Assembly: GCF_041248615.1 (NCBI RefSeq)
Contig: NZ_CP158426.1
DNA: 64,000 nucleotides
From: Escherichia coli
Lineage (GTDB): Bacteria > Pseudomonadota > Gammaproteobacteria > Enterobacterales > Enterobacteriaceae
Reading direction: 5' to 3' (one strand)
The notes beneath the pieces are model-generated. The model worked only from the letters and a program-made list of their open reading frames with translations. It did no database searches and had not been told where the DNA came from. A program made the position numbers and the translations under genes. Positions 59,169 to 59,194 of the stretch are shown piece by piece (the first letter of the stretch is position 1; each line of letters begins with the position of its first letter).

Positions 59169-59194
59169 AGCAGGGGTAGCCCCCCTGCTTTATT
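59169..59194 (+). terminator. intercistronic hairpin plus T-run between ecpA and ecpB (candidate attenuator)
   Basis: AGCAGGGG-TAGCC-CCCCTGCT perfect 8-bp GC-rich stem followed by TTATT, 16 nt after ecpA stop. Confidence 0.55.

Follow-up and report, generated by a model that had tools for sequence, protein, structure and literature searches.

In the papBA operon, RNase E cleaves the transcript between the genes for the regulator and the pilin; the papA mRNA owes its survival to a stem-loop at its 5′ end and, at its 3′ end, an RNase-resistant terminator hairpin, as summarized by Dar and Sorek from the original work (Baga 1988; Bricker and Belasco 1999; PMC5927463). The CFA/I operon is cited for differential decay (Jordi et al. 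1993, as cited in PMC5927463 and PMC4423207), and pap and CFA/I are listed together as examples of RNA that is selectively processed and stabilized (PMC4423207). That a hairpin after the major pilin gene gives an excess of pilin mRNA is a principle dating back to the studies of pap and CFA/I. The fim operon of MG1655 carries FimR2, a 35-nt sRNA annotated by RefSeq in the fimA-fimI spacer (1075-1109 of our locus L031); it acts in trans, is generated by RNase E, binds CsrA and has roles in the control of motility and of biofilm formation (PMC9723502). For ecp (mat), a processed ecpA mRNA has been described whose stability MatA raises when the temperature is low, the pH acidic or acetate present (Lehti 2013, as relayed in PMC5962669).

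Here, we analyzed the hairpin between ecpA and ecpB in a 64-kb stretch of Escherichia coli DNA (the window). Our main reading, to which we assign a probability of roughly 0.6, is that this hairpin would both terminate transcription leakily, as an intrinsic terminator, and hold off 3′ exonucleases, thereby bounding a stable ecpA mRNA whose 5′ end is produced by processing. The ecpA-ecpB hairpin may already be described in the ecp/mat papers. A text search of literature other than the primary ecp/mat papers, for ecpA together with "terminator", returned nothing relevant.

Layout of the ecpA-ecpB spacer

The hairpin lies in a short intergenic region of the ecp operon, with the following features (window coordinates).

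57901-58491: ecpR, upstream of ecpA (same gene in the RefSeq annotation of identical DNA)
58527-58541, + strand: small stem-loop in the ecpA 5′ UTR, GGGAC ATCAC GTCCT (-6.0 kcal/mol, z = -2.6)
58566-59153, + strand: ecpA (matB) coding sequence, major pilin, stop codon TAA at 59151-59153 (ORF list and RefSeq annotation of identical DNA)
59154-59168, + strand: 15-nt spacer from the ecpA stop to the hairpin, variable in sequence among orthologues
59169-59176, + strand: hairpin 5′ arm, AGCAGGGG (pair probabilities 0.79-1.0)
59177-59181, + strand: hairpin loop, TAGCC
59182-59189, + strand: hairpin 3′ arm, CCCCTGCT (from sequence, folding and covariation)
59190-59197, + strand: interrupted U-rich tract, TTATTCCT, directly 3′ of the stem
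59198-59213, + strand: ecpB ribosome-binding region (GGACGGAA) and start codon
59211-59879, + strand: ecpB (matC) coding sequence, chaperone, ATG at 59211 (ORF list; PF18649, EcpB family)
59905-62430: ecpC, downstream of ecpB (same gene in the RefSeq annotation of identical DNA)

The complete spacer is 57 nt long and reads TCTCTCTGATGTACC AGCAGGGG TAGCC CCCCTGCT TTATTCCTGGACGGAATTGTT. An initial annotation of this DNA had proposed an 8-bp stem with a 5-nt loop, 16 nt after the ecpA stop and 17 nt before ecpB. The stem is exactly there (59169-59176 / 59182-59189), perfectly paired over 8 bp, with six G-C pairs and the 5-nt loop, and both spacings hold by inclusive counting. Expressed as gaps, 15 nt separate the stop codon from the stem, which starts at the 16th nt, and 16 nt separate position 59194 from the ATG. 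Fifteen nucleotides is about the edge of the ribosome footprint, the downstream reach of a terminating ribosome. Because of this correspondence, a ribosome terminating on ecpA would abut the stem rather than cover it, and ecpA translation should not melt the structure.

The ecpB initiation region of E. coli (59193-59204) holds two GGA motifs and a TTCCT pentamer, and orthologues keep the sequence CACGGAyTGAAT before the ATG across genera. The pentamer is what we take to be the reported EcpR box motif. An EcpR box overlapping 59193-59197 was discounted, given that a 5-mer is expected by chance and that this one is absent from orthologues.

Stability of the hairpin

The folding energy, which the initial annotation had proposed to calculate, is -14.4 kcal/mol for the hairpin alone (z = -3.2; 1 of 200 shuffles as good) and -15.0 kcal/mol with short flanks (z = -2.95; 0 of 200). 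Taken whole, the 86-nt context shows no unusual stability (z = -0.55), and the hairpin is the sole element retained in its centroid structure. Perfect GC-rich stems of at least 8 bp occur 10 times in the window, at about eight distinct sites, versus 2.4 ± 1.8 in shuffled sequence; two such stems have a T-rich tail versus 0.12 expected. The hairpin is not a chance structure. A simple terminator scan of the window includes it among its sites, and its stem and loop fit the intrinsic-terminator pattern: a GC-rich stem within the range of about 5-14 bp and a loop within 3-8 nt, on the transcribed strand.

Seven of the eight stem pairs form with a probability of at least 0.96 in six sequence contexts, extending up to the whole ecpA mRNA. 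For either arm, no alternative partner of at least 6 nt is present in 58901-59400, which covers about 270 nt upstream and 210 nt downstream. Because pairing is highly probable in every context and no partner competes for it, the hairpin is constitutive and not a regulated attenuator. A terminator/antiterminator switch was rejected for want of a competing fold in this interval and of an Rfam cis-regulatory match; the Rfam search with the hairpin returned no family match, merely sub-threshold noise. "Attenuation", the term first applied to this element, is thus unsupported in its regulated sense.

The element is single-copy, occurring at a median of one place per E. coli genome, and a covariance model gives one site in the window; on this ground, a REP/BIME-type repeat was rejected. 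The minus strand of the hairpin also folds, at -17 kcal/mol. An antisense-strand terminator in E. coli was rejected, as no U tract follows the hairpin on the minus strand.

Conservation and covariation across Enterobacteriaceae

Orthologous loci, 27 in number, were recovered from species-representative genomes via EcpB alignment. The hairpin is present in 24 of 24 ecpA-ecpB spacers outside E. coli, at EcpB identities from 91% down to 52%, and all loci that keep an ecpA-ecpB junction have it at the same place. The set covers an Escherichia clade, several Klebsiella and Raoultella, Enterobacter, Phytobacter, Pluralibacter, Cedecea, Citrobacter amalonaticus, Pantoea and Kosakonia. The stem core GCAGGGG/CCCCTGC is nearly invariant; the 15-nt stop-to-stem spacer varies freely, as does the loop, both between species and between E. 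coli lineages.

Base pairs were counted over the eight outer pairs with the arms anchored by script on GCAG/CTGC. Standard pairs occupy 203 of the 208 cells, and two-sided, compensatory changes are found at four of the eight pairs when distinct arm sets are counted. At pair 1, 15 sequences have A-U, 6 have G-C and 5 have G-U, and pairs 6, 7 and 8 each exchange G-C for A-U in one lineage. The covariation score is 0.255 versus 0.167 in shuffles, none of 500 of which reaches the observed value, and pairing is 94% in register versus 35-72% in slid registers. The count was rerun on 8-nt arms joined by an artificial AAAA linker, which holds the register and is not real sequence. Neither a MAFFT whole-spacer alignment scored with RNAalifold, which placed the 5′ arms out of register and retained just four pairs, nor a hairpin-only MAFFT alignment with the same fault was used. 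The covariance-model alignment, which mixed sense- and reverse-strand matches of the palindrome, was excluded from counting. Taken together, presence in 24 of 24 spacers and covariation matched by 0 of 500 shuffles indicate that the hairpin structure is under selection on the coding strand and is maintained in orthologues.

We considered whether the element might instead be a palindrome that arose by chance or acts at the DNA level, without any role as RNA, for instance a protein-binding site or a preferred insertion target. Two independent insertions at the element, one of IS421 in E. coli OkiPb01676 and the other, in Klebsiella indica, of a REP-like element, would fit such a view, as would the folding of the minus strand. 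However, compensatory changes maintain pairing while the loop drifts, the T tract is confined to the sense strand in E. coli, and the element, being single-copy, is not a REP. In addition, eight cells hold G.U, which is tolerated only on sense RNA, versus three that hold A.C, an excess that points mildly to the sense RNA rather than to the antisense strand or to DNA. We therefore give this explanation hardly any credence.

In K. indica (2745-3000 of our locus L006), an insertion of about 190 nt with a REP-like palindrome (GTAGGCCCGAGTAAGCGAAGCGCCACCGGGCA) splits the ecpA-ecpB spacer. A good copy of the hairpin follows ecpA without a T tract, and a degenerate second copy precedes the T tract and the ecpB ribosome-binding site. 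The arrangement resembles what a target duplication at this hairpin would leave.

The distance from the end of the hairpin to the ecpB start is 20-30 nt in every orthologue. This leaves no space for a promoter between the two, and the ecpB chaperone gene and the usher and adhesin genes would have to be expressed by read-through of the hairpin. Any termination there should therefore be partial. The proximity to ecpB, which starts 21 nt downstream of the hairpin in the window, also raises the idea of an element serving the downstream genes: after cleavage upstream, a 5′-terminal stem-loop could shield the ecpBCDE mRNA from 5′-end-dependent attack by RNase E or tune ecpB translation. Stem-loops at the 5′ end stabilize the papA mRNA (PMC5927463), and the conserved ecpB ribosome-binding region comes directly after the hairpin. 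Such a role is nonetheless highly improbable: ecpB-D RNA is low, not high (see below), the predicted folds leave the ecpB Shine-Dalgarno region unoccluded by the stem, and the conserved adjacent T tract is left unexplained.

The quartets GCAG/CTGC are invariant in all 26 sequences, an invariance that sequence-specific recognition would explain. It is very unlikely, in our estimate, that the hairpin is more than a boundary in this sense, either recognized sequence-specifically or released as a stable small RNA. If it were, the element could link common-pilus expression to motility or other adhesins, or could be the handle for MatA, temperature or acetate control of ecpA mRNA stability. The small-RNA version, in which a FimR2-like regulator derived from the 3′ UTR is released from the ecp transcript, is compatible with a terminator at the same site and draws on the annotation of FimR2 in the equivalent fim spacer of MG1655, on the stem-loop that FimR2 requires for its stability (PMC9723502), and on the invariant stem quartets. 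The single-stranded flanks, the would-be carriers of a seed, nevertheless differ between genera, the loop has no GGA motif, and the ecpA hairpin and FimR2 show no obvious sequence resemblance by eye. No FimR2-like feature is annotated after ecpA in the MG1655 RefSeq record, none is matched in Rfam, and none has been reported. We accordingly regard release of such an RNA, too, as quite improbable.

Alleles within E. coli

Allelic variation was surveyed by counting records that match the 41-mer spanning the hairpin. The window allele, identical in MG1655, accounts for 3120 records (-15.0 kcal/mol, the reference). A 1-nt loop deletion of the ST131 type (1259 records) leaves the stem intact at -15.1 kcal/mol, and C59182A, of the BL21/C type (100 records), loses the top pair and folds at -12.9 kcal/mol. 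In an O157:H7 sublineage that includes our loci L033 and L034 (295-299 records), T59186A creates a mid-stem A.A mismatch; other O157:H7 strains retain an intact stem. Because this mismatch weakens the predicted fold to -9.9 kcal/mol, the full-strength stem is dispensable in at least this one lineage. The loop deletion, the top-pair loss and the O157:H7 mismatch are natural alleles that could be used to test pilin-to-machinery stoichiometry.

In E. coli OkiPb01676 (about 1545-1600 of our locus L003), the IS4-like element IS421 lies inside the 3′ arm of the hairpin, at the equivalent of window position ~59184, and ecpB is no longer next after ecpA.

The U tract next to the stem

The initial annotation had noted a trailing T-run. 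The tail is indeed T-rich, with five T in the eight positions of TTATTCCT, but the run is interrupted: it reads TTATT, which becomes TTTATT when the stem's closing T is counted in. Intrinsic terminators are expected to have a U-rich tract of 7-9 nt that begins 0-2 nt from the stem. Scored as RNA (UUAUUCCU, 5 U in 8), the tract has a tail score of 3.3, within the 1.6 to 4.7 found among orthologues. The T fractions at successive positions after the CTGC anchor in orthologues are 0.85, 1.0, 0.81, 0.35, 0.88, 0.85 and 0.46, and the first 9 nt after the anchor contain a mean of 5.75 T. The run is thus broken at the fourth tract position, both in E. coli and in some 65% of orthologues, and clean runs occur in some genera (TTTTTTT in an Enterobacter MAG, TTTTTT in Pantoea). 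Adjacency itself is conserved: in essentially every orthologue and genus, the base of the stem is where the tract begins.

An intrinsic terminator needs an adjacent U tract and an exonuclease barrier does not, which is why termination is included in the mechanism we favor. The imperfect E. coli tract, together with the very poor tracts of two orthologues (L005 and L027, tail scores 2.5 and 1.7), weighs against the terminator component.

Expression of the operon

Published RNA-seq of EPEC E2348/69 under virulence-activating conditions gives DESeq2 baseMean values of 49.07 for ecpR, 249.92 for ecpA, 54.49 for ecpB, 84.65 for ecpC and 42.86 for ecpD (PMC8550237, Table S2). Divided by gene length, these correspond to 83, 425, 81, 34 and 26 counts per kb, respectively; they are gene-level counts that combine wild-type with hfq mutant samples and do not resolve coverage along the genes. 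The per-kb signal of ecpA is ~5.2-fold that of ecpB and ~5.1-fold that of the upstream ecpR. Uniform coverage from ecpA into ecpB, the outcome named at the outset as speaking against an effect of the hairpin, is therefore not what these gene-level counts contain, and the predicted drop after ecpA and the excess of major-subunit mRNA are both borne out at ~5.2-fold. Termination as the full cause is not, since the ~5.1-fold excess over ecpR lies on the other side of ecpA. A terminator after ecpA cannot yield more ecpA than ecpR RNA, and processing with differential stability, or an internal promoter, is therefore needed. Termination is not the main or sole cause of the ecpA excess.

RNA that exceeds both operon neighbors, as ecpA does at gene level, is the signature of segmental stability, and it argues for a pure decay barrier. 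On that account no termination occurs; RNase E-type cuts in the AU-rich sequence after the stem and in the ecpR-ecpA spacer would release the message from the full ecpRABCDE transcript, and the stem would stop 3′-to-5′ exonucleases. PMC5962669 describes processing and differential stabilization of the ecpA mRNA, stabilization has precedents (PMC5927463, PMC4423207) in the model reported for CFA/I, puf and malEFG, and the U tract is imperfect. Against this, T at positions +1 to +3 is conserved at 0.81-1.0 across genera, although a decay barrier would not require a U tract, and the stem length, GC content and loop size match the intrinsic-terminator pattern. We consider a barrier acting without any termination unlikely.

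When CFT073 is shifted from 23 to 37 °C, transcripts also fall to different extents from gene to gene, ecpA more than ecpR or ecpB, with mRNA log2 changes of -3.07 for ecpR, -4.78 for ecpA, -4.07 for ecpB, -3.15 for ecpC and -2.82 for ecpD (PMC12890032 supplement, c0402-c0405). These data point to gene-specific, post-transcriptional effects within the operon.

The K-12 Term-seq data (Adams 2021 supplement) contain no sense-strand 3′ end in the ecpA-ecpB spacer. This absence is uninformative because the mat operon is stated in published work not to be expressed in planktonic K-12. On the minus strand, positions 58914-58952 within ecpA form a strong terminator-like hairpin of 13 pairs followed by TTTTTT. 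It coincides with the Term-seq 3′ end "antisense ecpA" at MG1655 310323(+), where the sequence is the same (window position = 369237 - MG1655 coordinate; Adams 2021 supplement). Because the minus-strand hairpin matches this 3′ end, we conclude that an antisense RNA ends inside ecpA in K-12.

Proposed mechanism

In the leaky-terminator and barrier mechanism, the 8-bp GC-rich stem would form directly upstream of the interrupted U tract as RNA polymerase crosses the spacer. A fraction of polymerases would terminate there, and the remainder would read through into ecpBCDE. The same stem would then block 3′-to-5′ exonucleases, protecting ecpA RNA that has been ended either by termination or by cleavage in the downstream AU-rich stretch. 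Combined with processing in the ecpR-ecpA spacer, this would leave a stable monocistronic pilin message, with ~5-fold more ecpA than ecpR or ecpB RNA, so that more pilin is made than assembly machinery. The folded structure, its conservation and covariation, the adjacent T tract, the absence of rival pairing and the uneven RNA-seq counts are the observations from which we infer that polymerases actually terminate at the stem, that the effect is shared between termination and stabilization, and that a 5′ processing step takes place. The overall interpretation first placed on the hairpin survives in its outcome, an excess of ecpA mRNA bounded at the spacer; its mechanism was incomplete and is in part putative.

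A candidate for the 5′ boundary is the stem-loop at 58527-58541, which sits just 3′ of an AU-rich stretch. Equivalent small hairpins are found in most orthologous ecpA leaders, with differing stems (GGGAC/GTCCC, GGGCC/GCC, GGAC/GTCC). By analogy with the papA 5′ stem-loop, the element could protect the 5′ end of the processed ecpA mRNA.

The gain is one of annotation rather than of concept, and ecp becomes an ordinary further case of a familiar pilus-operon design.

Comparison with known pilus systems

The ecp operon shares with papBA the order of regulator then major pilin gene and a pilin RNA that exceeds its neighbors. The pap transcript is processed between regulator and pilin, as we infer for ecp, where the 5′ UTR stem-loop and the ecpA-ecpB hairpin are candidate counterparts of the 5′ stem-loop and the 3′ terminator hairpin of papA. 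The two differ in pilus class, ECP being assigned to the alternative chaperone-usher pathway (PMC4461329), and they have no sequence similarity. CFA/I is likewise a fimbrial operon, in which segmental mRNA stability is credited, in the citing accounts, with setting the major-subunit excess; its gene order, unlike that of ecp, has the chaperone first. FimR2 matches the ecp element in being a stem-loop that immediately follows the major pilin gene of a chaperone-usher operon, in a short spacer. Its stem, however, is just 5 bp and lacks a U tail, and FimR2 is a demonstrated sRNA, a role that would be putative for the ecp element. With generic intra-operon Rho-independent terminators, the ecp hairpin has in common a GC-rich stem, a short loop and an adjacent U-rich tract, on the coding strand just past a stop codon, and it departs from them in the interruption of the U tract at position 4.

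The initial annotation had also held that chaperone-usher operons often use such structures, and of five other K-12 operons of this kind (elf, yad, yra, fim and sfm) all but sfm bear this out. In sfm, the sfmA-sfmC spacer, 219 nt long, has no comparable GC-rich stem; the hairpin it does contain is AU-rich, weaker (-10.9 kcal/mol) and far from sfmA. In fim, fimA is followed by the weaker stem-loop of FimR2. Strong hairpins follow the major-subunit genes of the other three in MG1655, at -17.9 kcal/mol after elfA, -15.1 kcal/mol after yadN and -23.0 kcal/mol after yraH, each with a T-rich tail. Although their sequences are unrelated to that of the ecp element, the elfA-elfD, yadN-yadV and yraH-yraI hairpins share its position, its strength and its T-rich tail.
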